Under the pieces are notes generated by a model. That model was not told the origin of the DNA, ran no database searches, and saw only the letters and a program-made list of their open reading frames with translations. Below are positions 3,001 to 30,253 of a stretch of 33,072 bases of DNA, in pieces. Both the position numbers and the translations under genes were made by a program. The stretch covers positions 1 to 33,072 of the forward strand of contig JAGGZS010000066.1 in the NCBI GenBank assembly GCA_021161885.1, given 5' to 3'. This DNA is from a bacterium (GTDB lineage Bacteria; Auribacterota; Auribacteria; Auribacterales; Auribacteraceae). Position 1 is the first letter of the stretch. Each line of letters starts with the position of its first letter.

Positions 3001-4345
3001 CAGGATTAGACGAATATTTGTTAACATAACTTGAACCGTCCCATGTTAACGCCGTATCATCTGAAAACAATTTGTAACATTCACTGTCTGCGTCCCAGTA
3101 ATAATCGTCGTAATCCACTTCAGTTGAGCCGTTCATTACTTTAGGCTGTGATACTTTTCTTTTTGCTATACACGTTACATTCGGTTCGGTATTGTTCAGC
3201 TGTTCCGTAGCAAGAAATCTGAGACCTAACAAAGCTCTTCCGGTATAAGCAAGTGTGATATCTCTTATTTCATCTATTGCCTGAACTCTCATTGCGCCTG
3301 AAGCAAGCTCATTGTCCACTCCGCCGGTTTTTATGATTCGAATATCATATTTATCCGGCTCAAGCCCTTCCTGCCTGTATATTCTCCGAACAGCTGATCT
3401 CTGTTTTGCGCTTATCGTATAAGAACTGTTTCCGTTCATGTAAGACCATGTTGAAGCACTATGCTTTTTGTATTCTATCGTGAATGTCACGGAATGTGTT
3501 GTTATGCCATTGAAATCAGGTTGCTGTACCTGAATATATAATCCGTTCGGACATGTGATATACACTTCGAATGCGTCTATATCGCTTAAACTTGTTGTGT
3601 ATGTAACACCAGGTCCGTTTATTTCAATATCCACTCCGATAGGGTTCACATGGTGTGTCTGATCAAAATAAGGAATGACACTTTGATCAGCTGTACCATA
3701 TCGCTTGAAAATCTCAACGCCGCTGAAATTAGAGACGGGATTATCGTTTATAAGTAAATCGTCTATATATTCAAGTTCCCCTTCACCAAGGCAAATAAGC
3801 ATATTGAGATAATTTTTGTCCCCGTCGGTAGATATGTACTGGTTGATTTTGTTGCCTCCGACACGATGTTTACCGAGCACAATTCCTACAGGTACACCTG
3901 TTGAGGCAATAAGAGTGATTCCGTCCCATCCGTAAGTAGGGCTACCGTCTTCAATACCGCCTGTATGCGATAACCCGTGACTTGCCTGGCGAGGTCCGGA
4001 AGTAACGGCTGAATAAATAGAATACCCGACAGAAGCCATTGCTATCCCGATATATATATACGGAGCTGCCGCTGCCAACGCTGAGGTAATCGGAGCGAGG
4101 ATCGTGCCGGCAGTCAAAAAAGCAAGAAAACCTAATTCTACATCCGGTGTAATTATAATCTCGTCATTATTTTCAAGTGTCCGCGACATGTCCGCGACAA
4201 CTTCACCACCTATAATAATTTTCTGATCTTCAAGATCATAATCCTTCAGATAATCAGATAACTTTTTACTGACATCAAACTCAACTTTTTTAGTTGACCT
4301 GCCTTCATTGCTTAATATATTCGGGATAACCTTAATTGTAATCAT
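1..4345 (-). CDS. Host-specificity/central tail fibre protein, lambda J-like, with an N-terminal lambda I-like segment fused in frame; 3' end lies beyond the window (more than 1448 codons)
   Basis: My translation from ATG at 4345 is open all the way to position 1; it is absent from the ORF track only because it is partial. The N-terminus is MITIKVIPN...IIITPDVELGFLAFLTAG... followed by a hydrophobic stretch, then VPVGIVLGKHRVGGNKINQYIS, which parallels lambda gpI (VLPVLYGEMRVGSRVVSQEIS). Then come J-like blocks: NPVWIIKDLLTNDVYGVG...AQYCDTKTPDGNGGYEKLF parallels lambda J NMAWCLWDMLTHPRYGMG...GQYCDQSVPDGFGGTEPRI. The start overlaps the upstream K-like gene by 14 nt. Confidence 0.9.
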   Translation of the reverse strand, partial: MITIKVIPNILSNEGRSTKKVEFDVSKKLSDYLKDYDLEDQKIIIGGEVVADMSRTLENNDEIIITPDVELGFLAFLTAGTILAPITSALAAAAPYIYIGIAMASVGYSIYSAVTSGPRQASHGLSHTGGIEDGSPTYGWDGITLIASTGVPVGIVLGKHRVGGNKINQYISTDGDKNYLNMLICLGEGELEYIDDLLINDNPVSNFSGVEIFKRYGTADQSVIPYFDQTHHVNPIGVDIEINGPGVTYTTSLSDIDAFEVYITCPNGLYIQVQQPDFNGITTHSVTFTIEYKKHSASTWSYMNGNSSYTISAKQRSAVRRIYRQEGLEPDKYDIRIIKTGGVDNELASGAMRVQAIDEIRDITLAYTGRALLGLRFLATEQLNNTEPNVTCIAKRKVSQPKVMNGSTEVDYDDYYWDADSECYKLFSDDTALTWDGSSYVNKYSSNPVWIIKDLLTNDVYGVGDYINVSALNNDLLLEMAQYCDTKTPDGNGGYEKLFKLDAVLDSATKVLDVIAQLSASFRGMAYYSAGAIHLKIDKQEDPNQVFKTYGMGNIINEFEQTWVSKKEKINVVEVQFMDEDNDYKQDSVEIEDKDVLYDSNGQQIVPRRKKVIRLTCTRLSQAVREGRYAIRAAKYHDKTISFKAGIDAVISQPGDVIGISHDVPQYGFSGRLKKLGTIPADALLHYKMDDNADNAVVVEENGNNAVFTNKSGSSYTAENSVAGKINTALAFNGNSYIDCGNNGNITGSLSISSWVKLTDSTPDNHYNIVSKTNLAYRFRVNNDGKLWLLLNDGSYDVIRTDNSYLTFDSTWYHIAVVFDSVNQKVNFYVNGVLKETKNTTKSSIQITSYGLTIGAIDVTASSEILSGHLDDVRIYDYELTAENVAYIHSLGKDRIRLDDEVIIESGKTYKLRVTFSDDTTEERTVTNSPGTYNELNLSDSFTQIPQDFDIYAFGENNKVVYPARIIKIERDNKNEVKITARTYDERIYDDSGLTLPDRNYSALNSMIPYIENLVLSEELFKELDGTVSTKVTAWFQKPTSPGDYYLKTYEKARIFLSNDEGSTWKQIGETYGVNFAIIDEFADLQTYRVAVVSVSKDGAQNAIDNSPYADITIVGKSAEPENVRNFDVQQVGTNLQLTWDGVADIDLSHYKIKKGSDWETDAVTVVEDVRTTSILLPVSELGNIRYLIKAVDTSGNESALASYDDIDVELKDTSRFITEFDLFSEYPFHLKTNNIDVHYRADFSRNYVRPVFALATQQTWQELENLGKTWQALINDGNFVLDDNFETSGSIEMQRDFDLKTVTEFQVSSVIGKVDANSQTFTIQISYSSDGTTWTSFADISTSTVYTARYVKLKFLWNTSNSSYNIYLYSLIVGFLSPDIVVVYGGDVSIPSSGKTISYGETFTAVPKVVCTITDGTDGVVIVSNKSTTSFDVTVKNLNGTAIAAEI

Positions 4346-4742
4346 TTTTTATCCTGTAAAAACCATGTATCCTGTTTTTAAAATCATTAAACCGGCTAAC
4401 AATAACCCCTGACTTAACAGCACAATGAATAAACCGACCGCGCGACAAAATTAAACCGGCATGATTCGCTATACCTTTACTGTTTTCAAGCAATACAACA
4501 TCGAACCTCTCAGCCCGTGAAACTTGTTTCCATTGCAGATAATAATGTTCTAAAAAATAATTTTCGCCTTCTGATCCCCAATCTTTTTTATAATCTATTC
4601 CGGGATCGTAAATCTGATATCCTAAATCAGCAAAAACCAATTTCAAGAAACCCCAGCAATCAAGCCCGTCTCTTGTTCGTCCTTTGTGTTTGAACGGTAT
4701 TCCTAAATATCTTCTAATCAGTTCATTCTCAGAAAGCGTCAA
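4332..4742 (-). CDS. Tail-associated NlpC/P60 cysteine peptidase (lambda K-like, P60 domain only)
   Basis: Catalytic Cys context GLDCWGFLKLVF and downstream His (NHAGLIL...FIHC). Position between the L-like and I/J-like genes. TTG start overlapping the L-like stop (GCTTGA). Confidence 0.8.
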   Translation of the reverse strand: MTLSENELIRRYLGIPFKHKGRTRDGLDCWGFLKLVFADLGYQIYDPGIDYKKDWGSEGENYFLEHYYLQWKQVSRAERFDVVLLENSKGIANHAGLILSRGRFIHCAVKSGVIVSRFNDFKNRIHGFYRIKNDYN

Positions 4743-5242
4743 GCTATATAAACCCTTTTTGTAGGTATACCGGGGAAATCGTCCCGGCTGTAAATTTTTC
4801 GCGGTATCGTTACATCATTAATATCGAATTTTGAACTTGCTAAGAACACAACCGAATTCTCATTTGAGGTAGGATAATCTATATAAAACAGGTCTTCTAT
4901 TACTGCATCAGGGTTACTTATGGTATCCCTGAATATTTGTTTGATAGACACTTTTTTGTCTCTCAACCCGTCGTATTCGTTAATGTAAAATTCTATTTCT
5001 CGAGATACATTGGAAACTGTTATTCTGACTTGGTCAATCTGTCCTTGAGAGTTTTCTGAAATAGGTTGGTGAGTAATCGGAAACCTTAAATATTCAACAC
5101 CATCGAAATACACATTTTCATCATTATCCGTCAAACAAAGATTTGTGCCGTTATTATCATAATCAAATACGGTATACAGAAAAATCGGCTGATTTTCCCG
5201 CTTATTTTTTTCTATTATATAATCAACGTTAAGCGACCGCAT
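4739..5242 (-). CDS. Minor tail protein L-like
   Basis: Synteny (after M-like, before K-like). Pattern YLRFPITHQPISENSQGQIDQVRITVSNV parallels lambda gpL YQPYPIQGSGFELNGKGTSTRPTLTVSNL. Lacks the Cys-rich C-terminus of lambda gpL. Confidence 0.75.
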   Translation of the reverse strand: MRSLNVDYIIEKNKRENQPIFLYTVFDYDNNGTNLCLTDNDENVYFDGVEYLRFPITHQPISENSQGQIDQVRITVSNVSREIEFYINEYDGLRDKKVSIKQIFRDTISNPDAVIEDLFYIDYPTSNENSVVFLASSKFDINDVTIPRKIYSRDDFPGIPTKRVYIA

Positions 5243-5581
5243 TTATAAAACTTCCTTAAACTCTATTTCTATTGAATAAATATTATAAGCGTTTCGTGTT
5301 ACAGACAATTTGTCTGAATTAAACCTGACTGTATACTCGGTTGAGTCTTCAGGATTTGTCCAGGTAAACGATGAATATTGGCCGTATTTTGATTGAAAAA
5401 ACGCAAGGATCTGATTCTTTTCTGCCTGAGTCCTGTTTTTAAACGTCAAACGCCAGCTTTTATCTTGACGTGTGCGCTTCTTGCGTCTTTGTTCCACCCC
5501 GTTTTCAAAGGTAGAAACCAAAGTTTTGAATTCTTCGACAGCAGTAATTATATTATCCGGATTCCATATAAAATCAGACAC
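5243..5581 (-). CDS. Minor tail protein M-like (distal tail)
   Basis: 112 aa, compared with 109 aa for lambda gpM. FENGVEQRR...ILAFFQSKYGQYSSFTWTNPED parallels lambda gpM FGDGYSQRA...LESFLEEHGGWKSFLWTPPYE. GTG start overlapping the tape-measure stop. Confidence 0.75.
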   Translation of the reverse strand: MSDFIWNPDNIITAVEEFKTLVSTFENGVEQRRKKRTRQDKSWRLTFKNRTQAEKNQILAFFQSKYGQYSSFTWTNPEDSTEYTVRFNSDKLSVTRNAYNIYSIEIEFKEVL

Positions 5582-7421
5582 TTTTAATCGTCTCCCTTAA
5601 CGGACTTCTTGTTTGTATGGAATTTATTAAAAACTGTTCGATTTGAGGCATAATGCGCATAACGCTTTGCCCGTCCATTGCCTGAATAATAAAAAAATTA
5701 TTAATTGCTCCTTGACCTTGATTACCTTTCAGGTCAACAGGTATGCTCCGTCCGTCCGGAAGGGGTACAACAGCTTCGTTTTTATATTTACCTTCGCCGA
5801 TTAACCCAAGTGTAGGACCGTCGGATACACCACCGCCGGCAAACGCCCTGAACGTACCGGGTATAACTCCTCCGTTGGCAAATCCTAACCCGCTTAATCC
5901 TGCAAAACCTTTGAAAACGGCTGCTGTTATTTGTTGCGCCGCAAACTCCGCGGCGATTTGTGCAAAAACATCTAATATTCGGTTCCCGAAATTTATAAAA
6001 ACTTCTTCAACGCTTTTTGTCTGCCGTATAAGGTCTTTAAAAGCTGTCCCCAGAGACTCTTTTATCCCGTAAGCAAGATTATGAGCGGCAAGTTTGCCTT
6101 GTTCTTCTAAATCACTAAACTTATCTATTAGACCATCAATCGACTGCCCTTCTTCCTTGCCTTCGTGACCAAACAACGTTCCTACAAAACCTTCTTTAAA
6201 TTGAGCGTACAAACTTAATTTTTTCTCAACCTCGTTTGTTATATCCGCGGCTATTTTTAATTCTTGTTGAGCTTTCTTATGTTTTTCTTCTAATAATATA
6301 TTTTCTTTGTTAATAAGTTCCGCCCGCTCTTTTATCTTTGCATTGATCAAGTCCATTAAAGGCACTTCGTCTTTTGACCTGATATGGACAGAATAAGTCC
6401 ATCCTTTCTTTTTGTCCGATTGTGCCAACATTTCTTTAATCCGCTGATTGATCGTTTTTCCCTCAAATCCCTTCATCTCTCCCCAGATTGTCAAAGGTCT
6501 CATCAACCAATTCCAAAAACCTTTTTTAATAGATTTTTTGCCGGATTCTAACTTAGACATCAAACGCTCGACAACAATATCCCAGATATCAGGAAGTGAG
6601 GTGAAAAGCGCAACTATTTCATTGTGATGTTCAGTTATCATGTCTGATAATTTATTAAAAAATTCAGTAAGTTTAGGCAGGTATTTTTTGCCGATATCAG
6701 CTGTTAACTCAAATATTTTAGATTTAAAAACGGCAACTGCGGCATCAAAATTATTTTTCATTAAATCCATTGCGTTCGGAAACTGTTTTGTCCATATATC
6801 AAGTAAAGAATTCCTAATTTCTTTATTCAGCTGAATGGTTGTTTTGTTTGCTTTTTCAATTTCCACTACCATTCGTTTAGGACCTTTGCCTGCAGCAATG
6901 ATAATGCTTTTTCCTTGCCGGTCAACCTCAACGCCAAGTTGACGTAACGTTCTTTTATTTAAACCGATAAACGCATTTGATATATCAGCCACTTCTCTTT
7001 TAAATATAACAGCGACATTCCCTAATTTTTTAACTACAGTTTCTGCAGACTCAACCCCAACCGACTCAAGCACTTTAAATGCCTCAATCACATCCTTTGT
7101 CTCAAGAGGTGACTCAGCTGCAAATTTACGCATTTCATGTAATGCAACTGCCGCTTTTTTGGCATCACCGTAAATGGCGGTCAACTGTGCCCGATAATTT
7201 TCAATATCAGCTGCAGGTCGAATAAACATATTAGCGCCTAAAACCGCACTTAATCCGAGTAATCCGGTTTTTAAATTAAAAACCATCTTGGTTAAACCTC
7301 GTAAAGCCGCCTTTGCTTTAGCTGTCATCCAGGAAAACGATCTGCCGATTAGCTTTAAATTCGGAGATATATTATTCTTCATTTTTGCGATAATTTCATA
7401 TGTCTTCTTAGCGTCTGCCAT
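5574..7421 (-). CDS. Tail tape measure protein
   Basis: 615 aa, largely helical/coiled-coil, with hydrophobic Gly-rich segments. C-terminal GGVIPG...GGGVSDGPTLGLIGEGKYKNEAVVPLPDG block typical of tape measure proteins. Located immediately after the G/GT chaperone pair. Confidence 0.85.
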   Translation of the reverse strand: MADAKKTYEIIAKMKNNISPNLKLIGRSFSWMTAKAKAALRGLTKMVFNLKTGLLGLSAVLGANMFIRPAADIENYRAQLTAIYGDAKKAAVALHEMRKFAAESPLETKDVIEAFKVLESVGVESAETVVKKLGNVAVIFKREVADISNAFIGLNKRTLRQLGVEVDRQGKSIIIAAGKGPKRMVVEIEKANKTTIQLNKEIRNSLLDIWTKQFPNAMDLMKNNFDAAVAVFKSKIFELTADIGKKYLPKLTEFFNKLSDMITEHHNEIVALFTSLPDIWDIVVERLMSKLESGKKSIKKGFWNWLMRPLTIWGEMKGFEGKTINQRIKEMLAQSDKKKGWTYSVHIRSKDEVPLMDLINAKIKERAELINKENILLEEKHKKAQQELKIAADITNEVEKKLSLYAQFKEGFVGTLFGHEGKEEGQSIDGLIDKFSDLEEQGKLAAHNLAYGIKESLGTAFKDLIRQTKSVEEVFINFGNRILDVFAQIAAEFAAQQITAAVFKGFAGLSGLGFANGGVIPGTFRAFAGGGVSDGPTLGLIGEGKYKNEAVVPLPDGRSIPVDLKGNQGQGAINNFFIIQAMDGQSVMRIMPQIEQFLINSIQTRSPLRETIKSV

Positions 7422-11086: not shown

Positions 11087-12052
11087 TTAAGCGACTTTCA
11101 TCAAGAACCCGAAATACGGGTCGATTATCTGTTCATCAGTATGCTGGCGAACCCTAAAAATATCGCTTCGAACACCTTCTTCACGATATTGTTCAACAGT
11201 GGCATTCTCAGGACTGTCAGCTGTCCATAAAAACGTTCTTGCCAGTGTGGGTTCTGATAAATCCTGCCCGTTTTTAGAAATTCTCGCTAATGAAACATAA
11301 GTATCACTCCAGATAGACGATCCGACAAAAGCAGATCCTTCTTTAGCAGAGTTCCTGATTGAACCGCCAACAATGACTTGCTCAATTCCAAAAAGATCAG
11401 CCAAAGCGTTCTTGATTTCCTGTTCAGTTAGTCGAGCGGTATACTTAATCGCGTCTTTGATGGCTGTATTTGCCAATAAATAATCAAGGTTAGTGCGGCT
11501 CACGATTAATGTGTTTGCTTCCATCCCGCAATTAGTACGGATTTTTTTACGCCCGAACCTTACTTGTCCAATAGCATCTGATCCGGCGGTTGCCCATGGC
11601 GCGCCTGAATAATCTTTATACAACGCATTGCCGGTAAACGTGCTTGTATTTATCACTAAATCGGCAATACGTTTTTCCTGTGCCTGCAGAAGCCGGCGGG
11701 TAATAATACGTGTTAAATTAAGTTCCGCATCAAAATCAGAGGCGTATAATGCACGATCGCTATCATCAAGAGGCCCTTCCAGACCATGCTCTTTACAGGC
11801 GAACTCTTTGTCTTTCACTTCAAATCCGTCTCGATTATAGTTTCCACGAGATCCGCGTTTAGTATCTGCATCCCGAGTGATACTTTCACGCGTTACTGCC
11901 GGATATTTTCCTTCTTTTTTCAAAGTAGGAAAAATAGGCGCTACCTTGGTTCCGATAAACTGATTTGCCTCATCAGTCATGAACTCCTGCATTGCTACAC
12001 CAAGTTCAATTCTTGGCACAGCTCTTGTTCCCGAATAATCAACTCCTGACAT
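11087..12052 (-). CDS. Major capsid protein, lambda gpE family
   Basis: 321 aa, SD AAGGAGA, position after the decoration gene. The overall pattern resembles gpE-type capsid proteins as I recall them. Confidence 0.8.
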   Translation of the reverse strand: MSGVDYSGTRAVPRIELGVAMQEFMTDEANQFIGTKVAPIFPTLKKEGKYPAVTRESITRDADTKRGSRGNYNRDGFEVKDKEFACKEHGLEGPLDDSDRALYASDFDAELNLTRIITRRLLQAQEKRIADLVINTSTFTGNALYKDYSGAPWATAGSDAIGQVRFGRKKIRTNCGMEANTLIVSRTNLDYLLANTAIKDAIKYTARLTEQEIKNALADLFGIEQVIVGGSIRNSAKEGSAFVGSSIWSDTYVSLARISKNGQDLSEPTLARTFLWTADSPENATVEQYREEGVRSDIFRVRQHTDEQIIDPYFGFLMKVA

Positions 12053-14059: not shown

Positions 14060-15676
14060 TTAATTCCTACCGGCATTTGCATTTGCTGTTGAGCTTGTAT
14101 TGACAGATTGATCTGTGTTTCCTTGTTTTTGCCTATCTTCATCTTCAACACCATCCAATCCGAGTTCGTTTAATTTATCCTTTTCTCGTTTACGCTGTTC
14201 AAACGCTTCTTCCCAATCTTGTCCGTTATTCGCGTAAATATCCGCATACGTTTTTATCCCTGTCTTCAATCCGACCTCAGCAGCTTTAGCTTCTTTGTAC
14301 GGATCAACCCATTCCCAACCAGGAGCTATCCAAAGTGAATTGCAGTAATAAACTTTATTTAAATAAAATTTTTTGATCCCAGGTAACATTCCCATCAGGT
14401 AAGCTTCTTCAATTACCATTTCAAACACCGGCTGGCAAAGTTGTCGGCTCATCCATTCCTGCCGAATTTTAAAATACCTGCGGGCTTCCAATAACGCCGC
14501 CCGGGCTGATGAATAATTTGTTTTTGAAAAATCTTTACTGACCAATTCGTAAGGCAAGTTTAATCCTGCGCACATATCCCTTAACATTCGCTCTATAAAC
14601 GGCGCAAAGTTATCAGCAGGCCTATTCGGATTAAATGACTCAATAGATGCTCCTGCCGGTAACCGTTTTATCATTCCCGGTGACAGTGACTCTATAATTT
14701 CTCCGTTGCTGTTAGTTCCAAAATCAGACTGCCTGAACTCATCTTCAATATCATCAAGGTTGTTTGTAATAAACACCGAAAAACAAGCGGCTACACGGGC
14801 GGCAGTCATCTCTGTTTCCGTATATTCCTGCATATCATGAAAAAAATTCATCACAGGCGCGAAAAACGGAACGCCTCTGGTCTGACCGGCACGCAGCAAA
14901 TGATATAAATGAATGACATTTTTACGCCCTGATTTATCTTTGGCAGGAATTCTGACATATTTATCTCGTGAATATTTTTTATATTGATAATCACCAGGAT
15001 GATTTTTTCTTATATAATAAGCCACCGGCTCACCATAATCACCTAATTCAACACCGTCCCTGATGTTCTTAGTATCTTTTAAACCTGATGGAGTTTCCAG
15101 CCTATCCGACTCAATAACCTGTAGTTTTACCGCGAATTTATTGTTTTTCTTTTTTATCATTTTTCGCAAAACAATCGCTTCGCCGTTCTCTAAAATTTGA
15201 CGGTCAACTAACTGTTGTATATCAAAAAAATGCATTCTCTCTCCAGCATCAGCTTCAGTCATCCAAACTTTCCATGCACGCTCAATATCCCGTTGCAGTT
15301 TGGAACCGTCTTCATCAGATAAGCAAAGAAACTCTTTATCTACTTTGCTCTGTGCTCTCAACCCTGTACCGATAACATTTGTTGTCATAGTATTTGTTAC
15401 ACCTGAAGCGTGCGGATTATTCCTGTTAAGATCACGACTTTTCGCGCGTAAATTCTTTAATTCCGGCAATAAGTCCTGATCTGCAGACTTACCCTGTGGA
15501 AGCCAATTAGATCGAACCCTGCTGGAGCCTGCACCGGAATAAGATGAAAAATTGTTCAACAAGTTCCCGAGTTTACGGAAACGAATCCTATTTAATTTTC
15601 GTTGAGGTGAAAAAATCCCAACGATACTATCTATCCCTTCAGATATCCTGTCTGAAAATTTTCTGCCTTTTTTCAT
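14060..15676 (-). CDS. Portal protein, lambda gpB family
   Basis: 538 aa (lambda gpB is 533 aa), follows gpW with a 4-nt overlap. N-terminal ...YSGAGSSRVRSNWLPQGKSADQDLLPELKNLRAKSRDLNRNNPHASG is typical of lambda-family portals. Confidence 0.85.
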   Translation of the reverse strand: MKKGRKFSDRISEGIDSIVGIFSPQRKLNRIRFRKLGNLLNNFSSYSGAGSSRVRSNWLPQGKSADQDLLPELKNLRAKSRDLNRNNPHASGVTNTMTTNVIGTGLRAQSKVDKEFLCLSDEDGSKLQRDIERAWKVWMTEADAGERMHFFDIQQLVDRQILENGEAIVLRKMIKKKNNKFAVKLQVIESDRLETPSGLKDTKNIRDGVELGDYGEPVAYYIRKNHPGDYQYKKYSRDKYVRIPAKDKSGRKNVIHLYHLLRAGQTRGVPFFAPVMNFFHDMQEYTETEMTAARVAACFSVFITNNLDDIEDEFRQSDFGTNSNGEIIESLSPGMIKRLPAGASIESFNPNRPADNFAPFIERMLRDMCAGLNLPYELVSKDFSKTNYSSARAALLEARRYFKIRQEWMSRQLCQPVFEMVIEEAYLMGMLPGIKKFYLNKVYYCNSLWIAPGWEWVDPYKEAKAAEVGLKTGIKTYADIYANNGQDWEEAFEQRKREKDKLNELGLDGVEDEDRQKQGNTDQSVNTSSTANANAGRN

Positions 15677-15891
15677 AATTCAACATTCCCGAATTTCACG
15701 TATGTGGTTCTTATCCTTGTCCCTGCGATCTCTTTTTTTAATTTATTTCTAAGGCTCAATAATTCATCTAAAGAAAAACGTTCAAGTTTACGTCCGTCAA
15801 CCAACGTATACGACTTAACAGCGTTGCCGGTCATTGATGCGTTAATCGCAATATTTACGTTATCTAACATTTGTTGAGTAGTAGGTACCAT
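15673..15891 (-). CDS. Head-tail joining protein gpW
   Basis: 72 aa. LDNVNIAINASMTGNAVKSYTLVDGRKLERFSLDELLSLRNKLKKEI parallels lambda gpW [45 protein letters not shown]. Located directly upstream of the portal gene. Confidence 0.8.
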   Translation of the reverse strand: MVPTTQQMLDNVNIAINASMTGNAVKSYTLVDGRKLERFSLDELLSLRNKLKKEIAGTRIRTTYVKFGNVEL

Positions 15892-15917
15892 AACGAAAGA
15901 AACTCCTTTTTTTTACC

Positions 15918-15965
15918 AAAAAAAGCCCGATTCCCCCTTAGCTAAGGAATCGGGCTTTGTATTTT
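15918..15965 (-). terminator. Rho-independent terminator (bidirectional architecture)
   Basis: 10-bp stem GCCCGATTCC/GGAATCGGGC (15924-15933 / 15945-15954). Flanked by an A-run (15918-15923), which gives 6 U after the hairpin on the minus strand, and by TTTGTATTTTT on the plus side. Confidence 0.75.
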
Positions 15966-16068
15966 TAAATTGGGGCGTCCGAGATTGATCAGATCTCAAC
16001 GCGTTTTTAATTTTTCATCAGAACTATATTTTTTAAATCCTCACAAAAATTTCTCTATTATTAAAAAA

Positions 16069-16097
16069 AGTTTAACTTGAATTTGAACTTAAGTCAA
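16069..16097 (-). promoter_or_regulatory. Sigma70-like promoter candidate TTGACT-N17-TAAACT
   Basis: Minus strand reads TTGACT (16097..16092), a 17-nt spacer, then TAAACT (16074..16069). It lies in an ORF-free gap about 105 nt upstream of the 15918-15965 terminator stem. Confidence 0.4.
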
Positions 16098-16137
16098 GGG
16101 GGGCATTACTACAAAATAGTAAAATAAATAAATTCTT

Positions 16138-16173
16138 AAAAAAAACTGCCGGATAAACCCGGCAGCTTTTTTC
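16138..16173 (-). terminator. Rho-independent terminator directly after the PEP-CTERM gene (bidirectional architecture)
   Basis: Stem CTGCCGG/CCGGCAG (16146-16152 / 16159-16165). An A8 run precedes it (U8 after the hairpin on the minus strand) and CTTTTTTC follows on the plus strand. It starts 16 nt after the stop codon at 16189. Confidence 0.8.
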
Positions 16174-16188
16174 TTATATAAACTAAAT

Positions 16189-16854
16189 TTATCCATGCAG
16201 TCTGCGATGAACAAAACTAAATAAAGCCAACCCGACAAGTAATAATGTTGTCGGTTCAGGTACAGCTTGTGCATCATATGTTATAGTAAGTTTCGGACGT
16301 AAAGTATCCGTTGAATAATCAGATGTCCAAAATAAATAAGCCTGTGAATAATTTGTCATACTCACCACTCCAACCCCATAATTAGGCGATATTCCCGAAT
16401 GCCATTCGTTTACAAAATCGGTTATATCCCATTCCGCCCAAGTATATTGAGCAGGAATTCCACCTGAATTCAAAACTCCTGCTGACATGTCAAGAGAAGG
16501 TTTGTTATTCCAAGTAACAGTCATTTCATCCCAAGGCGAAACTATTTTATACGCAGACATAGGATAATGAACGGAATTGACCGCACGTACGTACAACTCA
16601 AGTACTGCATTATATATAATAACATCTTCAGGGAGAACAGATATATCAAATTCTATTAACGGATAAAAACTATTTATATTTCCTGCGTCCATCGATAAAC
16701 CACTGCCGTAATTATTATTCGGACTGCCAGAGTAAACTATAGTATCTTTTCCTTCACTACCCGGCTGAAGTGTTATAACAGACGCATAACCGTCCGAAGA
16801 TAAAAAGAAAAAGGCAATTCCCAAAACAACTAAATTACAATACAGTCTCTTCAT
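16189..16854 (-). CDS. Secreted DNRLRE-like (carbohydrate-binding/disaggregatase-related) protein with C-terminal PEP-CTERM sorting signal
   Basis: Signal peptide MKRLYCNLVVLGIAFFFLSSDGYA. Body has IEFDISVLPEDVIIYNAVLELYV...WDEMTVTWNNKP...DITDFVNEWHSG...NYGVGV...RPKLTITY. C-terminus VPEPTTLLLVGLALFSFVHRRLHG has the VPEP motif, a TM helix and a basic tail. Strong SD GAGGAGG. Confidence 0.8.
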   Translation of the reverse strand: MKRLYCNLVVLGIAFFFLSSDGYASVITLQPGSEGKDTIVYSGSPNNNYGSGLSMDAGNINSFYPLIEFDISVLPEDVIIYNAVLELYVRAVNSVHYPMSAYKIVSPWDEMTVTWNNKPSLDMSAGVLNSGGIPAQYTWAEWDITDFVNEWHSGISPNYGVGVVSMTNYSQAYLFWTSDYSTDTLRPKLTITYDAQAVPEPTTLLLVGLALFSFVHRRLHG

Positions 16855-16882
16855 AATTCCTCCTCATATACAAAATTTCTAT

Positions 16883-16912
16883 AAAAATAACATATAACAA
16901 CAATAATTGTCA
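16883..16912 (-). promoter_or_regulatory. Sigma70-like promoter candidate TTGACA-N18-TATTTT for the PEP-CTERM moron
   Basis: Perfect -35 on the minus strand (16912..16907), an 18-nt spacer and TATTTT (16888..16883). It ends about 28 nt upstream of the ATG at 16854. Confidence 0.45.
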
Positions 16913-16936
16913 AGCATTTTATTCGTAGAAAAAAAA

Positions 16937-17194
16937 CTATTCTTCAACACTTTTGAAATTCTGACCGCAATTCCTGCAGATATGATATCTAACCGGCGGA
17001 TGACTGGAATAACATCTTACATTTTTGCTTTTGCACTGAGGACAACGCACAGGTCTATACGATACGCTATATTCAACTTCATCTTCTTTCATTAAAGGCA
17101 TTTTTACGTTCTTTTTAGACTGCTTTTTTAACCAATTCGGATTCAAATTAATCCAATTACTCAAATCCACGCCCCTTCTCGTTTTCTTATCCAA
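16937..17194 (-). CDS. Small C4 zinc-ribbon protein (Ogr/Delta- or IS1 InsA-like); the real start may be the internal ATG at 17101
   Basis: RCPQCKSKNVRCYSSHPPVRYHICRNCGQNFKS is a CxxC-N17-CxxC arrangement with an RYH-C-N-C-F signature like P2 Ogr (CPLC...RYHQCQNVNCSATF). The annotated start overlaps the terminase 3' end by 34 nt. Confidence 0.55.
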   Translation of the reverse strand: MDKKTRRGVDLSNWINLNPNWLKKQSKKNVKMPLMKEDEVEYSVSYRPVRCPQCKSKNVRCYSSHPPVRYHICRNCGQNFKSVEE

Positions 17195-19014
17195 TTTTCC
17201 CTGCTTGTACCCCTTTGAACCGGTTTATGTACCCGAACTCTATTTTCTTCCCTAATATTCAATATTTTACTTATATCTGCGGCTGCAACGGAATAAACTT
17301 CCGTATCAAAATAATGGTTCGCGCCGGATCCTTTCTTCAATTTCCAAATTTCCCTGACCGGTTTTCCTTTTCTCCTTTCCAATACTTTATGTTCAGCTGT
17401 AAATTGAGTTAAATATTCTCTATGCGGATCCCTGAAAATATGCCATTTTTTTGGGTCTTCAGAATGGACTAACCGGCTGATTTTGTTTTTATAATGGTTC
17501 ACATCAATATGCCACAAAATAAGCCCGTTTTTGATAATAGCTCCGGTCTTTGAATTGATATCTATTTTAGATGATTTATAAAACCGACCGGATGTAATCG
17601 AAACCTGTCCTTTAATTGCTTTAGCCTTATCTTTCCATTTCCTGCAGAACCGATAAACCTCATCCGCGTTATATCCGGTATCAATACAGGTCATGTAAAC
17701 TGGCAGTACCTCATCCGAACCAATCTTTTTATATCTTGTATTAAATAAATCTTCCTCAATATCAAACCAACTCTCAACACGAGCCCTGCGGATAAGCCAT
17801 GACTCTTCACAATATCCCCATCCTCTAATCGAATAATAAAAATGACCTTTCTGCACATCCACTCCAGCGGTTAAAACCAGTACATCATCCGGCACGATTC
17901 CTTCATCATAATCACAGGCAAGTTCTTTTATTACGTCAATAGTCGTCTCTTCAACTTTATCTTCCCATATTTCCGCAAGCCACGAGTTGACGAAATTCAT
18001 TAGAAGTTCAACGTAATCTTTCGAGTCAAGGAACTCTTTTGCGATATCGCTCCATGTTAACCAAGGCGAATAAAGCGAATTGATCCAGAATCCACGATGT
18101 TTATTATGTGATGCGTCTTTTACGTTGCCGGCATTATCTATTTCAGCGCCTTCCGGACACCAAACCCCTTTGATCATTATTTGAAGTTTATGGTTATCAT
18201 TAATTTTTTTTTGGCAATAATGGCATTCATACCAGGCAAGCCGTTTCTCTTGAATTTCTCTTCCGGACGTTTCTTCATCCGGCCATTTAATTTGTGAAAA
18301 ATATAATACTTGGTATTTACCGCAATGCGGGCAGGGTACATAATATTTACTCTGATCACTCTTTTTATATTCCCTGAAAATATAACTATCTTCTGTTGTA
18401 GGTGTAGATACTTTGACTGTTTTCTTGTTCCAGAACGTTTTCTGTCGTTCAGTAGCTAATTTAATCGGATCCGCTTCTTTTCCTGAGAATTTCGGGTATT
18501 TATCTATCTCATCCAAAAAAACATACCTTACCGGTCGGGACGCTAACCCTGCAGGACTGTTCGCACCGGCAAAATACATTATCATCCTGTCCAGCTGGTA
18601 CTCCAGTTTTGTTATGTCATCGGATATCGGCGACACGTGAGAACTCAATGCCGATGAAAGCCGAATCATCGGCTGAACACGGTCATACGAGATGCTTCTT
18701 GCGTCCTCAATCCTTGGTAACACCATTAGCGCAGGTCCGGGATCTTGATCAATAACATAACCTAGCATATTATACATGCATTCCGTCTTACCGACTTGGG
18801 AAGACGCCATTATCGTTATATCTTCAACATTCGGATCAGTGAATGCATCCATAATCTCTTTTAAATACGGAGTTCTTCTCGTTCTCCATTGACCCGGTTC
18901 AGCTGATGTTTTTACATCTAAAACCCTGTTTTTATCCGCCCATTCACTTACTGTAAGTTTTTCCGGCGGCCGCCATGCTTCTTTTTCTCTTTCAGACCAA
19001 GATAACTTTTTCAT
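17161..19014 (-). CDS. Terminase large subunit, lambda GpA family
   Basis: 617 aa. N-terminal EWADKNRVL...GQWRTRRTPYLKEIMDAF...SSQVGKTE (Walker A-like) and overall layout match GpA-type terminases. Preceded by a small terminase candidate. Confidence 0.9.
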   Translation of the reverse strand: MKKLSWSEREKEAWRPPEKLTVSEWADKNRVLDVKTSAEPGQWRTRRTPYLKEIMDAFTDPNVEDITIMASSQVGKTECMYNMLGYVIDQDPGPALMVLPRIEDARSISYDRVQPMIRLSSALSSHVSPISDDITKLEYQLDRMIMYFAGANSPAGLASRPVRYVFLDEIDKYPKFSGKEADPIKLATERQKTFWNKKTVKVSTPTTEDSYIFREYKKSDQSKYYVPCPHCGKYQVLYFSQIKWPDEETSGREIQEKRLAWYECHYCQKKINDNHKLQIMIKGVWCPEGAEIDNAGNVKDASHNKHRGFWINSLYSPWLTWSDIAKEFLDSKDYVELLMNFVNSWLAEIWEDKVEETTIDVIKELACDYDEGIVPDDVLVLTAGVDVQKGHFYYSIRGWGYCEESWLIRRARVESWFDIEEDLFNTRYKKIGSDEVLPVYMTCIDTGYNADEVYRFCRKWKDKAKAIKGQVSITSGRFYKSSKIDINSKTGAIIKNGLILWHIDVNHYKNKISRLVHSEDPKKWHIFRDPHREYLTQFTAEHKVLERRKGKPVREIWKLKKGSGANHYFDTEVYSVAAADISKILNIREENRVRVHKPVQRGTSRENWIRKREGAWI

Positions 19015-19604
19015 TTAACCCCCGCAAACGTGTTACAAACTTCCCGTATCCGTTCGGTTAAATATGCTTCTATTTCTCTTGGCTCATACATGTTCGCAAG
19101 TATTGATGCCAATTGTCTCGGCAACGCGAATAAATTGCGTTTAACAGTAAGAATTCTTTGTACCCGGCTCTCTTCAACCTCTTTTAATGGAATAAGTTCA
19201 CCTTTAAGCTTTTTAAACAACAACTTTTCTTTTTCAAGCTGCTGCTTTTTTAATCTTTTTTCCCAGTATATTTTTGTATCTTTAGTTTCTTTCATTTTGG
19301 CTATTTGGTTTTGATACCGCCATGCCTGAATGGCTAATAAATCATAATATCCTTCAGGCCGCACAGGCATCCCAGCAGCTACCCAATTTGCTACAGTTCT
19401 CGGCTTAACTTTGAATATATCCGATACTTCTCGCTGTGTCCTCACAACAGCTGGCGGAAGCGGACAGTTCTCCAACACTTCCAGTTCCCGAATTTCTCCG
19501 GGCGTTAAAGATTTTTTCTGCAATTTAGTCAACAAATGATGATGCCTTTTCTTTTTGGCCATAAAAACTATATCTACTTTTTTGTTACACATGCTAAATC
19601 CCAT
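19011..19604 (-). CDS. Terminase small subunit candidate (HTH-containing); start uncertain (19604 or 19562)
   Basis: Position immediately upstream of the large terminase, overlapping it by 4 nt. HTH-like VSDIFKVKPRTVANWVAAGMPV followed by a coiled-coil region. Confidence 0.55.
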   Translation of the reverse strand: MGFSMCNKKVDIVFMAKKKRHHHLLTKLQKKSLTPGEIRELEVLENCPLPPAVVRTQREVSDIFKVKPRTVANWVAAGMPVRPEGYYDLLAIQAWRYQNQIAKMKETKDTKIYWEKRLKKQQLEKEKLLFKKLKGELIPLKEVEESRVQRILTVKRNLFALPRQLASILANMYEPREIEAYLTERIREVCNTFAGVK

Positions 19605-19731: not shown

Positions 19732-21033
19732 TTATACTTTTACTAATTCAGCTTTTTCTCCTGTAAATTCTTCCCATCTTTGAACTGCTACATCACAAAA
19801 CACAGGTTCCAGTTCCATTGCAAACACACGACGATTAAGCCGTTCACCAGCGATAATCTGCGAACCAGACCCGGAGAACGGTTCATAACAAATATCACCA
19901 GGTTGAGTATGTACTCGCATCGGTATAGCGAACACTTCGGTAGGTTTGACTGTCGGATGTTCTAATCCGGGATTACGTTTTTTGCCTTCCCAGTCCAGTT
20001 CCCATACATCAGAATAGTAGTCCGGTGACGCAGGGTCGCCTGATTTAAAAAAATCTACACGCCAGACCGTACCGATAGATTTGTCTTTCGGTTTATACGG
20101 CGGTTTACTGCCTTGAACCCACATAAGCAAACAAGGTTCGTGTCGCCATGAATAAAACGAATAAGTAAGTATCGTACACGGTTTCACCCATATAATCTGC
20201 TGGTGTACCAAGATATTCAGTTCGTCGCATACTTGCTGAATTTCATGGCGTCGTTTTGATGCGTGCCACAAATACAAGGCCGTATTCTCTTTAATCACTT
20301 TTAACCCAACGCTATAAAAATCTTTGATAAATTTACTCGCATCAGGGATATCAACTTCATGGTATACACCTGACCAGTCTTTACCGCCGTTCGGTCTGTC
20401 TTTACCGGTATAATCAACACAATACGGCGGATCAGTAGCAAACAGTTTTGCCTTTTTACCATCCATAAGCCGAGCGACGTCATCCTCATTAGTGCTGTCC
20501 CCGCACAATAGACGATGGTTGCCGAGAATCCATAGATCGCCCGGACGGGTAATCGTTTCTTTTGGTGGTTCGGGAATATCGTCCGGTAATGTTTTTCCGC
20601 ATCCTGTATTTTCTTCCTCAAAATCTTTAAATGAATCTCTTAATTCGTTTAATCGAAGGTCTAAATAATCCTCATTCATCTGTTGTCGGAGTTCTTCCAG
20701 TATAGGAATTAAAGCTTCTGTGAAAACTCCCTGTATCTCAATATTATTCAAAGTAACATTAAGTAATCGTTCATGAATACTGTCTACATCAAGTAAAATA
20801 ACCGGTATCTCCTGAACATTCGCTTCTTTTAAAACTTTAAAACGCTGATGACCGCCGATAATGGACATATTTCGTTTATTAACGATAATCAGATCAATGT
20901 AGCCGAATTTTTCAAGGCTCTTTTTTAATCCCGTTAAAGCCGGATCGGATATTTGCCTTGGATTCCATTTTGCAGATTTTATATCCGATATTTTCAACTG
21001 CATAATTTCCGGTTTTATGTCTATTTTTGCCAT
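19732..21033 (-). CDS. ParB-like nuclease domain fused to a DNA methyltransferase (N6-A/N4-C, beta class)
   Basis: N-terminal ParB/Srx-type block (NPRQISD...IIGGHQRFKVLKE). DPPY motif (LFATDPPYCVDY) and a C-terminal SAM-binding block EPFSGSGSQIIAGERL. Confidence 0.85.
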   Translation of the reverse strand: MAKIDIKPEIMQLKISDIKSAKWNPRQISDPALTGLKKSLEKFGYIDLIIVNKRNMSIIGGHQRFKVLKEANVQEIPVILLDVDSIHERLLNVTLNNIEIQGVFTEALIPILEELRQQMNEDYLDLRLNELRDSFKDFEEENTGCGKTLPDDIPEPPKETITRPGDLWILGNHRLLCGDSTNEDDVARLMDGKKAKLFATDPPYCVDYTGKDRPNGGKDWSGVYHEVDIPDASKFIKDFYSVGLKVIKENTALYLWHASKRRHEIQQVCDELNILVHQQIIWVKPCTILTYSFYSWRHEPCLLMWVQGSKPPYKPKDKSIGTVWRVDFFKSGDPASPDYYSDVWELDWEGKKRNPGLEHPTVKPTEVFAIPMRVHTQPGDICYEPFSGSGSQIIAGERLNRRVFAMELEPVFCDVAVQRWEEFTGEKAELVKV

Positions 21034-29328: not shown

Positions 29329-29566
29329 ATACTCTCCTTTTGTTATAAATAATAACTTTTACTTACGTATTAAATGTAAATTTTAGATCAAAAAAATATC
29401 ATTAGATATGCTGGCATATTTTTACCTATACTTAGATATTTTTAGCTATTATGGAAATAAACTTACATCACATAATAAAATAAAGTCAATAAAAATTTTC
29501 ACTGCAATGTAAAATTTTCTTTTATTAAGTATGAAATTTAATTATATTTTACATATGGAACGTAAA
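29329..29566. promoter_or_regulatory. Immunity switch region between the cro-like and CI-like genes, containing several inverted repeats (candidate operators)
   Basis: 202-nt AT-rich divergent intergenic region. Contains TTAC-N9-GTAA at 29363-29379 and TTTAC-N9-GTAAA at 29548-29566. Contains overlapping palindromes ATATC-ATTA-GATAT (29396-29409) and ATATGC-TG-GCATAT (29406-29419). TTAGAT recurs at 29383, 29402 and 29432. Confidence 0.5.
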
Positions 29567-30253
29567 TTTTATCTTCGATTATCAAACTTAATAGAGCTTT
29601 CCAGTCAGACGAAACGATATTTTTCTAAGGCTATCGGAATGCACGAAACACACTTTTCAAGCATGTTGAAAGGACGCTTAGTCCCCCCGCCTTACGATCA
29701 GTGTGTAAAGTTGCTTGATGAACTTTCTAAATACGTTAATATTTCACCTGAAGAAAGAGAAGAATTTCTCCGCCTTGCCGGAGAAGAGAGGATCCCTGAC
29801 AAAGAAAAACCTTTTATCCCTCACGTAATAAAGTCAAAACCAATAAGAATAGAAGATGTAGGTATCCCAGTGAATAAAGTTCCTTTCATTCCTATGGAAA
29901 AGGTGTATAATATATACACAACAAACAACTTAGACGAATGCGCGACCGAGTATATGATCTCTCATCTTGGGTATAACGATCTGTTTACGACAAAAGTAAC
30001 CTGCGATTCTATGTTATACGAGTTTCGCCCTGGTGAGATTGTGTTTATCCGCACAAAACTGCTTTATAAAAACGACGACTATGTCATAGCTATTGATCTT
30101 GAGAGTAAAGAATCTTTCCTGCGGCAGTACAAAGATTACGGAGAAACCAAAGTTTTAAGACCCCTCAATCCCGCGTTCAAAGAAATATTTTTTGATAATA
30201 AAAGGTATAAAATAGTAGGTCCTGTCATCGGTAAATTTACATCGATGGGGTAA
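29531..30253 (+). CDS. CI-like repressor: N-terminal HTH plus C-terminal S24 (LexA-like) autopeptidase domain; alternative start at 29555
   Basis: HTH LIELSSQTKRYFSKAIGMHETHFSSMLKG. C-terminal VTCDSMLYEFRPGEIVFIRT (Ser block) and ...FLRQYK... (Lys block). Divergent from the cro-like gene. Confidence 0.8.
   Translation: MKFNYILHMERKFYLRLSNLIELSSQTKRYFSKAIGMHETHFSSMLKGRLVPPPYDQCVKLLDELSKYVNISPEEREEFLRLAGEERIPDKEKPFIPHVIKSKPIRIEDVGIPVNKVPFIPMEKVYNIYTTNNLDECATEYMISHLGYNDLFTTKVTCDSMLYEFRPGEIVFIRTKLLYKNDDYVIAIDLESKESFLRQYKDYGETKVLRPLNPAFKEIFFDNKRYKIVGPVIGKFTSMG

Follow-up and report, generated by a model that had tools for sequence, protein, structure and literature searches.

A phage-borne PEP-CTERM protein gene in a cargo slot of a lambda-like siphovirus, probably of Candidatus Omnitrophota

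An inserted cassette encoding a PEP-CTERM protein was found between the terminase and head genes of a phage contained in the window (the whole stretch of DNA analysed, 33,072 nucleotides). With moderate confidence, the phage is read as a temperate lambda-like siphovirus infecting Candidatus Omnitrophota and the cassette as a moron whose exosortase-sorted, lectin-like product would alter the surface of the lysogen. The feature described in the initial annotation was confirmed, and its interpretation was supported wherever it could be checked. The presence of an extra, self-contained phage gene with a PEP-CTERM address label makes it probable that the virus adds a new protein to the surface of its host cell. 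Morons and lysogenic conversion are known; phage-borne PEP-CTERM cargo is previously undescribed. To our knowledge, PEP-CTERM/exosortase sorting has so far been described from chromosomes alone, where it is linked to exopolysaccharide and floc formation, and the Omnitrophota are a phylum with almost no virology.

The locus is composed of the following features (positions in the window).
15673-15891, minus strand: gpW-like head-tail joining gene, the first gene downstream (phrog_118, phrog_5774 and phrog_75; NF047331 weak)
15892-16125, minus strand: conserved non-coding cassette, the downstream border (alignment, covariation)
16126-16936, minus strand: inserted cassette, the candidate moron, about 811 bp (alignment against the empty slots of relatives)
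16937-17194, minus strand: conserved 85-aa zinc-ribbon ORF, CxxC...CxxC, the upstream border, overlapping the end of TerL
17161-19014, minus strand: large terminase (TerL) of the lambda gpA type (PF05876, 261.8 bits; PF20454, 220.1 bits)

Related phages were compared at 114 loci, 104 of them informative (TerL 55-68% identical). The A-W junction survey proposed in the initial annotation was thereby carried out: the slot was empty in 87 of the 104 informative relatives, held other DNA in 17 and contained the cassette gene in none. The empty slot measures only about 175-200 nt. Eight other inserts were found at the same point in close relatives, among which the cargo includes an OMP beta-barrel (locus L010), GmrSD with HNH, and DUF4238; the slot of another prophage (L088) holds a second PEP-CTERM protein, with a signal peptide and an FGE-sulfatase domain (TIGR02595, 18.3 bits against a cutoff of 16). 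The slot between terminase and head genes is a cargo hot spot. Inserts on the forward strand also end in hairpin terminators, strong in L010 (z = -3.2) and weak in L088 (z = -1.9). A tRNA scan returned none.

The cassette is inserted exactly between the 85-aa ORF and the non-coding cassette, from just past the stop of the former to where the latter begins. It had been described as an insert between adjacent A and W genes; the insertion stands and the adjacency does not, the 85-aa ORF and a non-coding cassette of about 180 nt always lying between TerL and the gpW-like gene in phages of this group. The 85-aa ORF, whose zinc-ribbon Pfam matches are weak only, was matched by tblastn (32-67% identity) at 104 of the 114 loci, always directly after TerL; the ten loci without a match are all truncated and match neither gpW nor portal.

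The phage and its cassette gene were recovered in four assemblies (99.6-100% identity), and an identical protein was found on three further contigs from independent assemblies, each in the TerL and zinc-ribbon ORF context. It is highly improbable that the gene lacks a function, whether as a passenger that is neutral or in decay or as an artefact of assembly. It occurs in one phage lineage only, and the contigs of two independent assemblies break near the junction, at about 16109/16110, some 16 nt inside the conserved non-coding cassette; however, the ORF is intact and all three of its modules score, four independent assemblies give one identical sequence, and phage genes flank it on both sides on one 33-kb contig. 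The GC content of the gene (0.374) lies within the spread of the phage genes (0.383 ± 0.028); its low GC3 (0.266, z = -2.1) is equalled by two equally low phage genes. By this weak test, base composition gives no foreign mark for the gene; the inserts of relatives are clearly AT-richer than their own phages.

The signals within the cassette are as follows.
16138-16173, unstranded: bidirectional intrinsic terminator (A6, 9-bp GC-rich stem, 6-nt loop, T8)
16189-16854, minus strand: CDS of a 221-aa pre-protein, stop included, ATG start (ORF call)
16859-16865, minus strand: Shine-Dalgarno sequence GAGGAGG, 4 nt 5' of the ATG (read from the sequence)
16884-16913, minus strand: sigma-70-type promoter-like site (TTGACA, 18-nt spacer, TGtTATTTT; consensus match only)

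The promoter-like site (TTGACA at 16913-16908, TATTTT at 16889-16884) lies in the 82-nt gap upstream of the CDS and matches 10 of 12 consensus positions plus the TG of an extended -10 element. A promoter candidate had been annotated here; the site is present, its coordinates were 1 nt off, and matches of this type occur at chance density (26 in 9.5 kb against 26.9 expected). The Shine-Dalgarno sequence (16865-16859) was found as annotated. The terminator, AAAAAAGCUGCCGG-loop-CCGGCAGUUUUUUUU, forms 15 pairs when flanking A:U pairs are counted, and its folding energy (dG -22.1 kcal/mol, z = -6.3; 0 of 200 shuffles as stable) bears out the earlier description of it as strong and bidirectional.

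The candidate promoter makes expression in the lysogen possible. The gene is also co-oriented with the structural genes, and lytic read-through from the terminase transcript is therefore likely. An unlikely alternative is that the same protein, made along with the late genes or constitutively, serves the lytic cycle or competition between phages, coating the cell surface or exopolysaccharide (EPS) and masking the phage's own receptor, with superinfection exclusion and no loss of progeny on debris as the result. Such receptor masking, which stops progeny loss on debris, is exemplified by Llp of phage T5. Consistent with a lytic role, the gene has the orientation of the packaging and head genes and follows directly downstream of them, the slot in relatives also holds defence-type cargo (the GmrSD with HNH and DUF4238 inserts), and a glycan receptor is suggested by the lectin-type Laminin_G_3 domain in the tail tip protein of the phage. 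The cassette, however, has a promoter-like site and a terminator of its own, the closest homologues of its product are encoded by ordinary chromosomal genes with no phage link, and nothing links the domain to a receptor.

The pre-protein comprises three modules.
16783-16854, minus strand: signal peptide, aa 1-24 (MKR, hydrophobic core, GYA; predicted cleavage before S25)
16279-16749, minus strand: DNRLRE/CBM96 beta-sandwich, aa 36-192 (HMM, AF2, Foldseek)
16192-16266, minus strand: PEP-CTERM sorting signal, aa 197-221 (VPEP, TTLLLVGLALFSFV, HRRLHG)

The predicted signal peptide, judged by hydropathy, rule and alignment, consists of MKR, 15 hydrophobic residues and GYA|S, with a helix at residues 2-19 in the AF2 model; in homologues an xxA motif is aligned just ahead of (L/V)QPGSEGKD, the conserved stretch with which the domain opens. 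The intact ORF with this signal peptide agrees with the earlier description of a 221-aa secreted protein. The C-terminal tail, VPEPTTLLLVGLALFSFVHRRLHG, passed the curated cutoff of each of the two PEP-CTERM models, PF07589 (24.6 bits against 20.7, aa 197-218) and TIGR02595 (19.2 bits against 16, aa 198-218), by a few bits only, and the PEP-CTERM C-terminus proposed in the initial annotation was thus recovered by the HMM search suggested there. The order is that required of such a tail, a Pro-Glu-Pro motif, a hydrophobic helix (hydropathy peak at 197-215; helix at 201-220 in the AF2 model) and basic residues. At the same position, homologues bear lineage-specific tails of different kinds (PEP-CTERM, T9SS CTD and others), which marks the tail as a swappable sorting module.

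Candidatus Omnitrophota is a supported name for the likely host lineage, the relatives being prophages in Omnitrophota genomes: 25 of the 34 genome matches to TerL bear the name Omnitrophota, Omnitrophica or Velamenicoccus in their titles, and two of these 25 lie in the complete chromosome of Ca. Velamenicoccus archaeovorus. Members of this phylum are ultra-small and depend on hosts, as epibionts or predators. An S24 CI-like repressor and the integration of relatives in chromosomes point to a temperate lifestyle of the phage. No exosortase-like ORF was found in the window or in about 0.6 Mb of Omnitrophota and chromosomal loci, as judged by a screen on ORF length (220-650 aa) and TM segments (at least 6) alone; the sole candidates that this screen returned from the loci were a Polysacc_synt flippase and an unrelated 7-TM ORF. 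In published source data, one Omnitrophota MAG only (Genome 58) lists PF09721 (exosortase) together with PF07589.

It is quite unlikely that the tail is a plain C-terminal membrane anchor which, with no matching exosortase in the host, leaves the domain tethered to the inner membrane and facing the periplasm. The near-threshold PEP-CTERM scores, the lack of a demonstrated host exosortase and an HRRLHG end less basic than typical RRRK tails would fit such an anchor. A sorting signal is favoured over it by the conserved position of VPEP throughout the subfamily of ~220-aa homologues, by the exchange of sorting tails in other homologues, by the PEP-CTERM proteins encoded in genes adjoining the cellular homologues and by the PF09721 entry of the one MAG.

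The central domain was assigned by two models well over their cutoffs, NF033679 (112.1 bits against 34) and PF24517 (67.3 bits against 26), in keeping with the DNRLRE-like body noted initially, for which this HMM check had been proposed; PF06848 (Disaggr_repeat) reached 32.6 bits, slightly under its cutoff of 33.9. The AF2 model (pLDDT 87.3) is a two-sheet beta-sandwich like the solved members of the family. Its best Foldseek matches were 8wab (TM 0.75, E 1e-8) and 7vbo (TM 0.68, E 5e-7), and a profile compared with PDB sequences gave E values of 2e-14 and 4e-13. The founder of CBM96 is TM6-N4 of the alginate lyase Dp0100 (PDB 7vbo; PMC9971899), and 8wab is a chondroitin-sulfate-binding CBM. 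The phage domain shares their HMM family and beta-sandwich fold and differs from both in standing alone rather than attached to an enzyme. In the alignment, where the 7vbo stretch SKQLKFKGTSKGSDDR faces GSGLSMDAG..NINSFYP of the phage protein, five of the founder's alginate-binding residues (Lys10, Lys22, Lys25, Lys27, Lys31, Arg36 and Tyr159) could be placed, and these five, Lys22, Lys25, Lys27, Lys31 and Arg36, are not conserved. The mature domain is acidic (6 K+R against 18 D+E, pI 4.1). On both grounds the ligand is not transferable; the fold alone suggests that the domain may bind carbohydrate.

Phage tail and depolymerase proteins often contain modules of the CBM96 type, the fold and domain occur within large structural proteins of phages such as gp367 of Bacillus phage G, the SP-15 pectate lyase and phrog_37549, and the gene sits among morphogenesis genes; the protein might on these grounds be a virion component, such as a head decoration or an accessory carbohydrate-binding protein. 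This is nonetheless very unlikely indeed, since a protein with a cleavable signal peptide and a C-terminal membrane anchor does not fit the assembly of virions in the cytoplasm. The gene is moreover missing from all of the 104 relatives, which have the same virion genes, and the small DNRLRE architecture with a PEP tail was seen in 0 of 44 viral DNRLRE matches.

The closest homologues of the phage protein are cellular PEP-CTERM DNRLRE proteins. They include stand-alone proteins of ~220 aa (among them P0027, P0030, P0002, P0003 and P0066; 42-48% identity), and VPEP is kept at the same position across this whole subfamily. They share with the phage protein the three-module architecture, the length and near-identical signal peptides (MKKLYC...), and differ in their cellular context, the copy in the window lying inside a phage. 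The cellular genes are often in tandem or beside other PEP-CTERM genes. The best homologue (P0027, 48%) is encoded by one of two tandem PEP-CTERM DNRLRE genes on a contig of GC 0.36; this contig comes from a metagenome that also contains the phage, the sample being that of the phage contig L175. Another (P0002) is a chromosomal 221-aa protein, 43% identical and with its own PEP-CTERM tail, from assembly GCA_018435605.1, which also carries two related prophages. The cassette gene was most likely captured from a chromosome of the Omnitrophota type.

In the favoured reading, that of a moron acting on the lysogen surface, the gene would be transcribed from its own sigma-70-type promoter and would thus be expressible in the lysogen, the terminator insulating it from the next unit. 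The pre-protein would be exported by Sec and cleaved after Ala24, and the C-terminal helix would hold it in the inner membrane until a host exosortase recognised VPEP and cut off the anchor. A lectin-like domain of ~19 kDa would then be handed to the cell surface or the exopolysaccharide layer, where it may bind some glycan and so alter adhesion, matrix or phage-receptor masking in the lysogen. We infer this mechanism as a whole, with exosortase processing, expression in lysogens and the ligand included.

The nearest precedents are the lambda-type morons lom and bor, extra late-region genes for envelope proteins (the Hendrix/Juhala concept). Like them, the cassette gene is added to the late or structural region of a temperate siphovirus, is absent from relatives and has a promoter-like site and a terminator; its product would likewise be an envelope protein riding a host sorting pathway, and the OMP beta-barrel of L010 occupies the same slot. 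Unlike them, it carries a PEP-CTERM (exosortase) label instead of a lipobox or BAM signal, in a presumptive Omnitrophota host; its composition is not deviant, and its prophage expression is a prediction. SasX, of Staphylococcus aureus, is an LPXTG sortase-anchored surface protein of a phiSPbeta-like prophage. There too a prophage supplies a substrate for a C-terminal sorting transpeptidase of the host and alters the cell surface; that system is Gram-positive, works through sortase and LPXTG and has a known phenotype, whereas exosortase and PEP-CTERM would be used here. PepA of Zoogloea resiniphila is a chromosomal PEP-CTERM protein needed with EPS for floc formation (PMC9012009). Both are small, Sec-exported proteins, in the phage case by prediction, with a PEP motif, TM helix and basic residues matched by TIGR02595/PF07589. 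The cassette protein differs in being phage-borne and in having an unrelated body, the floc_PepA model NF033554 reaching it in the tail region only (24 bits against a cutoff of 80).

The initial annotation knew of no characterised phage-borne PEP-CTERM protein. In the literature searched on PEP-CTERM/exosortase with Omnitrophota, prophage or bacteriophage, none was indeed found; the one relevant mention was in a 2026 preprint, which notes that a virus-like element of Dehalococcoides has a PEP-CTERM domain. Uncharacterised examples were found here, however, so that the cassette is not unique in carrying PEP-CTERM cargo: other lambda-like viral contigs hold tandem PEP-CTERM genes between portal and protease. 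The GenBank phage collection yielded no PEP-tailed homologue; its matches are all distant, confined to the domain and located within large proteins of Gram-positive phages. A broader proposal, which is unlikely, is that phage-borne exosortase substrates form a widespread and unrecognised kind of cargo for surface conversion, carried by lambda-like phages of PVC-type bacteria and placed in fixed packaging or head slots with varied bodies (CBM96 lectin, FGE-sulfatase fold), sometimes in arrays of at least five, and that the phage lectin alters the attachment of Omnitrophota and tunes their range of partners or prey. Phage-borne substrates would add the exosortase pathway to the routes by which phages remodel the envelope, PEP-CTERM cargo could serve as a host-range marker for uncultured phages, and phage PEP-CTERM proteins could be used as small, portable test substrates.

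The comparison also affords a first look at a coherent temperate phage family of Omnitrophota, with a defined cargo hot spot and an adjoining conserved, regulatory RNA-like element. Two other readings of the ~180-nt gap, a small ORF and a cos site, were rejected: the gap has no conserved ORF and covaries as RNA hairpins. Rfam gave no match in the window at gathering thresholds, and an E-value scan of 15600-17300 returned sub-threshold matches to terminator-like sRNAs only. In order, the element contains an inverted repeat, a promoter-like site (TTGACT-17-TAAACT, 16097-16069), covarying hairpin 1, a terminator hairpin (15958-15922) and the Shine-Dalgarno sequence of the gpW-like gene. Its covariance model matches the window at 16008-15911 (60.9 bits) and finds a single copy of the element in each close relative, located after the cargo in every case.

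The window is a lambda-like siphovirus. Its main features are as follows.

Features of the phage genome around the insert
2-4348 (-), gpJ-like tail tip protein, cut by the window end, with a Laminin_G_3/concanavalin-like lectin domain (89.5 bits)
4332-5581, gpM/L/K-like genes
5574-7421, tape measure
11087-12052, major head protein
14060-15676, lambda-family portal
15673-15891 (-), gpW-like gene (family match)
16126-16936 (-), insert (alignment with relatives)
16937-17194 (-), 85-aa zinc-ribbon ORF (CPQC...CRNC), overlapping the TerL end
17161-19014 (-), gpA-type TerL (family match)
19011-19604, candidate TerS (by position; no family match)
19732-21033 (-), ParB_N and N6/N4 DNA methylase fusion, before TerS
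29531-30253 (+), S24 CI-type repressor, on the strand opposite to the structural genes
31765-32211 (+), HEPN (pEK499_p136) protein
32870-33072 (+), C5-methyltransferase-like motif GCAPCQTFS in the last ~200 nt (by eye)

Replication protein O, RusA and a PD-(D/E)XK nuclease are among the early genes. Since a CI-type repressor is present, the phage is probably temperate; the lectin domain of the tail tip hints at a glycan receptor.

A search with TerL gave relatives (54-72% identity) at 80 loci in IMG/VR and at 34 in species-representative genomes. Their gene order is TerS, TerL, zinc-ribbon ORF, ~175-200 nt of non-coding DNA, gpW and portal. The zinc-ribbon ORF was matched by tblastn in 104 of the 114 loci (32-67% identity), the other 10 all being truncated, and its Pfam matches were weak (e.g. 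Ogr_Delta, E 0.3). The initial annotation had described an independent cassette inserted between the A and W genes, and the survey of this junction bears it out: among the 104 loci with a readable junction the slot was empty in 87, held extra DNA in 17 and contained a homologue of the window gene in none. Window positions 16125-15892 align with the conserved non-coding stretch, and the insert is therefore 16936-16126; its borders are exact, with the stop of the zinc-ribbon ORF on one side and the inverted repeat opening the conserved stretch on the other. Three further assemblies, built from other data sets, contain the same phage with an identical gene (99.6-100% identity). In two of these three (ENA ERZ23499350 and JGI 3300016457) the contig breaks off at ~16109/16110 of the window, ~16 nt inside the conserved stretch; because assemblers break where co-occurring variants share sequence, these ends suggest co-occurring phage variants with a common cassette. 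The cargo identified in the slot of other loci was as follows.

Slot cargo in related loci
L010 and L011 (L010:10301-11065), 254-aa OMP beta-barrel (Chlam_OMP/OMP_b-brl)
L040 and L091 (L040:10022-11071, reverse strand), DUF4238
L076:5318-6130, 270-aa membrane protein
L087:7282-8523 (reverse strand), GmrSD_N and HNH
L088:12055-13029, 324-aa protein with signal peptide, FGE-sulfatase domain (95.9 bits) and PEP-CTERM
L089:7929-9434, 501-aa secreted repeat protein

In L076, L088 and L089 the inserted DNA runs up to the inverted repeat that opens the conserved stretch, so that these inserts share the insertion point of the window. L088 is a prophage in GCA_018435605.1 (JAHDNF010000026.1), and the tail of its protein, IIPEPLSMGLLLLSIGGLVLRRTKRV, scored 18.3 bits with TIGR02595 (cutoff 16). 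The slot is a cargo hot spot for surface and defence genes, and PEP-CTERM proteins have entered it on at least two occasions, their bodies being unrelated. In a more distantly related group of Omnitrophota prophages (L107, L109, L111-L113 and L117; TerL 55-58%) the zinc-ribbon ORF and the portal are 2.5-5.2 kb apart; the conserved ~180-nt cassette is absent from them, and no PEP tail was found there when ORFs of 80 aa or more were screened by pattern.

The 221-aa ORF proposed for the insert was found at 16189-16854 on the minus strand, and the coordinates first assigned to its signals were right to within 1 nt. GAGGAGG is present 4 nt upstream of the ATG. The strong terminator assigned to 16138-16173, downstream of the gene, was confirmed by folding as an A6/GC-stem/T8 hairpin (-22.1 kcal/mol, z = -6.3), well above chance. 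The candidate promoter lies in the 82-nt gap back to the preceding ORF (TTGACA at 16913-16908, an 18-nt spacer with terminal TG, TATTTT at 16889-16884); such sites occur at chance density (26 vs 26.9 expected in the 9.5 kb scanned). A less likely, rival reading gives the product a role in the lytic cycle, in receptor masking or exclusion. Composition is no guide to foreign origin (GC 0.374 vs 0.383 +/- 0.028 for phage genes; GC3 z = -2.1). That the gene is a neutral passenger is very improbable.

Both the DNRLRE-type body and the PEP-CTERM signal attributed to the protein held when HMM searches were run. Over residues 36-192 the scores were 112.1 bits with NCBIfam DNRLRE_dom and 67.3 bits with Pfam CBM96, against cutoffs of 34 and 26; over residues 197-218 they were 24.6 bits with Pfam PEP-CTERM and 19.2 bits with TIGR02595, against cutoffs of 20.7 and 16. 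By rule, the N-terminus (MKR, 15 hydrophobic residues and GYA|S) qualifies as a type-I signal peptide, which aligned with the equivalent feature in all homologues. In an AlphaFold model (16 homologues as input; pLDDT 87.3) a beta-sandwich (25-194) is flanked by one helix at the N-terminus and another at the C-terminus (201-220). The nearest solved structures were 8wab, a chondroitin-sulfate-binding CBM (TM 0.75), and 7vbo, the alginate-binding founder of CBM96 (TM 0.68), followed by TGF-beta-type prodomains; the predicted fold points to a glycan-binding module. Alginate binding in 7vbo is by basic residues (PMC9971899), and these are not conserved in the window protein, the mature domain of which is acidic (pI 4.1).

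The best reading of the cassette, and one that we hold with somewhat better than even confidence, is a lysogenic-conversion moron. Its sequence modules speak for a product that is exported by Sec, loses its signal peptide and is anchored for a time by the C-terminal helix; by analogy with PEP-CTERM systems, an exosortase would then cut at VPEP and deliver the ~19-kDa lectin-like domain to the cell surface or the EPS, where, speculatively, it might affect adhesion, the matrix or receptor masking. That the protein belongs to the virion is very improbable, being contradicted by the signal peptide and anchor and by the absence of the gene from relatives with the same virion genes. The initial observation holds, and its interpretation is borne out to the extent that sequence evidence allows; what is new is a moron with a predicted exosortase-pathway product, carried by a phage of a phylum for which hardly any virology is known.

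When 1.84 billion representatives were scanned in full with HMMER, 13,625 relatives of the domain came up, most within large proteins; a subfamily of stand-alone proteins of ~220 aa combines a signal peptide and a DNRLRE domain with a PEP-CTERM tail. The best homologue (P0027, 48%) belongs to a tandem pair of stand-alone DNRLRE/PEP-CTERM genes on a contig of GC 0.36, from a sample shared with the phage contig L175; another (P0030, 47%) adjoins a further PEP-CTERM gene and glutamine synthetase genes. The chromosomal homologue P0002 (221 aa, 43% identity) has its own PEP-CTERM tail (TIGR02595, 16.4 bits) and is encoded on a 647-kb contig of R3-B46 (GCA_018435605.1), where its neighbours are a polysaccharide flippase and giant surface proteins. 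At the PEP-CTERM position some homologues carry a T9SS C-terminal domain and others a conserved ...PTSFGKVKALFK end; the tail thus acts like an exchangeable sorting module matched to the lineage, and that of the phage copy is of the kind used by its presumed hosts. Its use as a plain membrane anchor, with no exosortase involved, seems unlikely. In small metagenomic DNRLRE proteins (P0004-P0007, P0009, P0011 and P0012) a conserved ...(A/T)PTSFGKVKA(L/V)F(K/E) tail replaces PEP-CTERM/T9SS; no NCBIfam model matched it in the two proteins tested (P0004 and P0009), and it is possibly a C-terminal sorting signal that has yet to be described.

PEP-CTERM cargo was also sought in IMG/VR with the L088 protein as query, which gave further lambda-like contigs (GC 0.52-0.64) with portal (L165-L168, L172) and TerL (L165, L167) ~25-28% identical to those of the window. 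In these contigs, genes for proteins that each combine a signal peptide, an FGE-sulfatase domain and a PEP-CTERM tail adjoin the portal, those of L169 and L172 included. L165:4519-7379 has three PEP-CTERM genes in tandem between the portal and an S49 head protease, L166:1497-6173 at least five after the portal, and L168:1809-4190 two plus one other secreted protein. All 10 proteins tested passed TIGR02595 (19.8-26.7 bits). The DNRLRE domain occurred in 44 IMG/VR loci, mostly within 400-1600-aa proteins and in none with a PEP tail; in BFVD the same fold lies within tail or depolymerase proteins. Among the phage matches, therefore, the architecture of the window protein is unique, but phage PEP-CTERM cargo in itself is recurrent. 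The sole literature mention found was a 2026 preprint on a PEP-CTERM domain in a Dehalococcoides virus-like element.

The titles of 25 of the 34 genome loci name Candidatus Omnitrophota, Omnitrophica or Ca. Velamenicoccus archaeovorus, the last being placed in Omnitrophota (PVC group); the others are five 'uncultured Planctomycetales' MAGs, one 'uncultured bacterium' MAG, one 'Nitrospirae' MAG and two 'Bacterium R3-B46'. The complete chromosome of Ca. Velamenicoccus archaeovorus LiM (NZ_CP019384.1) carries, at 1.87-1.94 Mb, two family prophages ~49 kb apart (L092 and L120), both with an empty slot. The R3-B46 assembly holds P0002 and two prophages, one of them L088 with its PEP-CTERM moron. 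The literature found on Omnitrophota mentions neither prophages of the phylum nor a link to exosortase or PEP-CTERM. PF09721 was taken to be Pfam Exosortase_EpsH. For Genome 58, an Omnitrophota MAG (order B26-G9, 93.9% complete), Seymour et al. (2023) give one PF07589 and one PF09721 match in their source data; for the genomes listed, this entry shows that an exosortase/PEP-CTERM system exists in Omnitrophota and says nothing on its frequency.

The conserved non-coding cassette before gpW (15892-16125, minus strand; RNA part 15911-16008) is present in all close relatives and comprises, in order:

Elements of the ~180-nt cassette
1, inverted repeat TTACTA-N4-TAGTAA
2, -35/-10-like pair, 17-nt spacing
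3, hairpin with covarying stem and palindromic loop (CTGATCA or TGGCC)
4, CCCAAT
5, covarying GC-rich terminator and T-run
6, ATTGGG, pairing back with CCCAAT as a clamp round the terminator
7, SD of gpW

Across 19 sequences, pairing held in 94.9% of cells vs 40-66% with partners slid, and 10 pairs were changed on both sides vs 2-4 in the slid controls. No Rfam match was found. A covariance model located a single copy in each close relative, both V. archaeovorus prophages included, always directly before gpW and downstream of any cargo. The cassette looks like a promoter followed ~100 nt on by a terminator, as in lambda PR'/tR', and may be a late promoter with an antitermination target, or a small RNA. 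A separate transcription unit under antitermination control may therefore begin with the head genes, which would put the moron at an operon boundary, not inside an operon. Speculatively, the zinc-ribbon protein may regulate the adjacent cassette.
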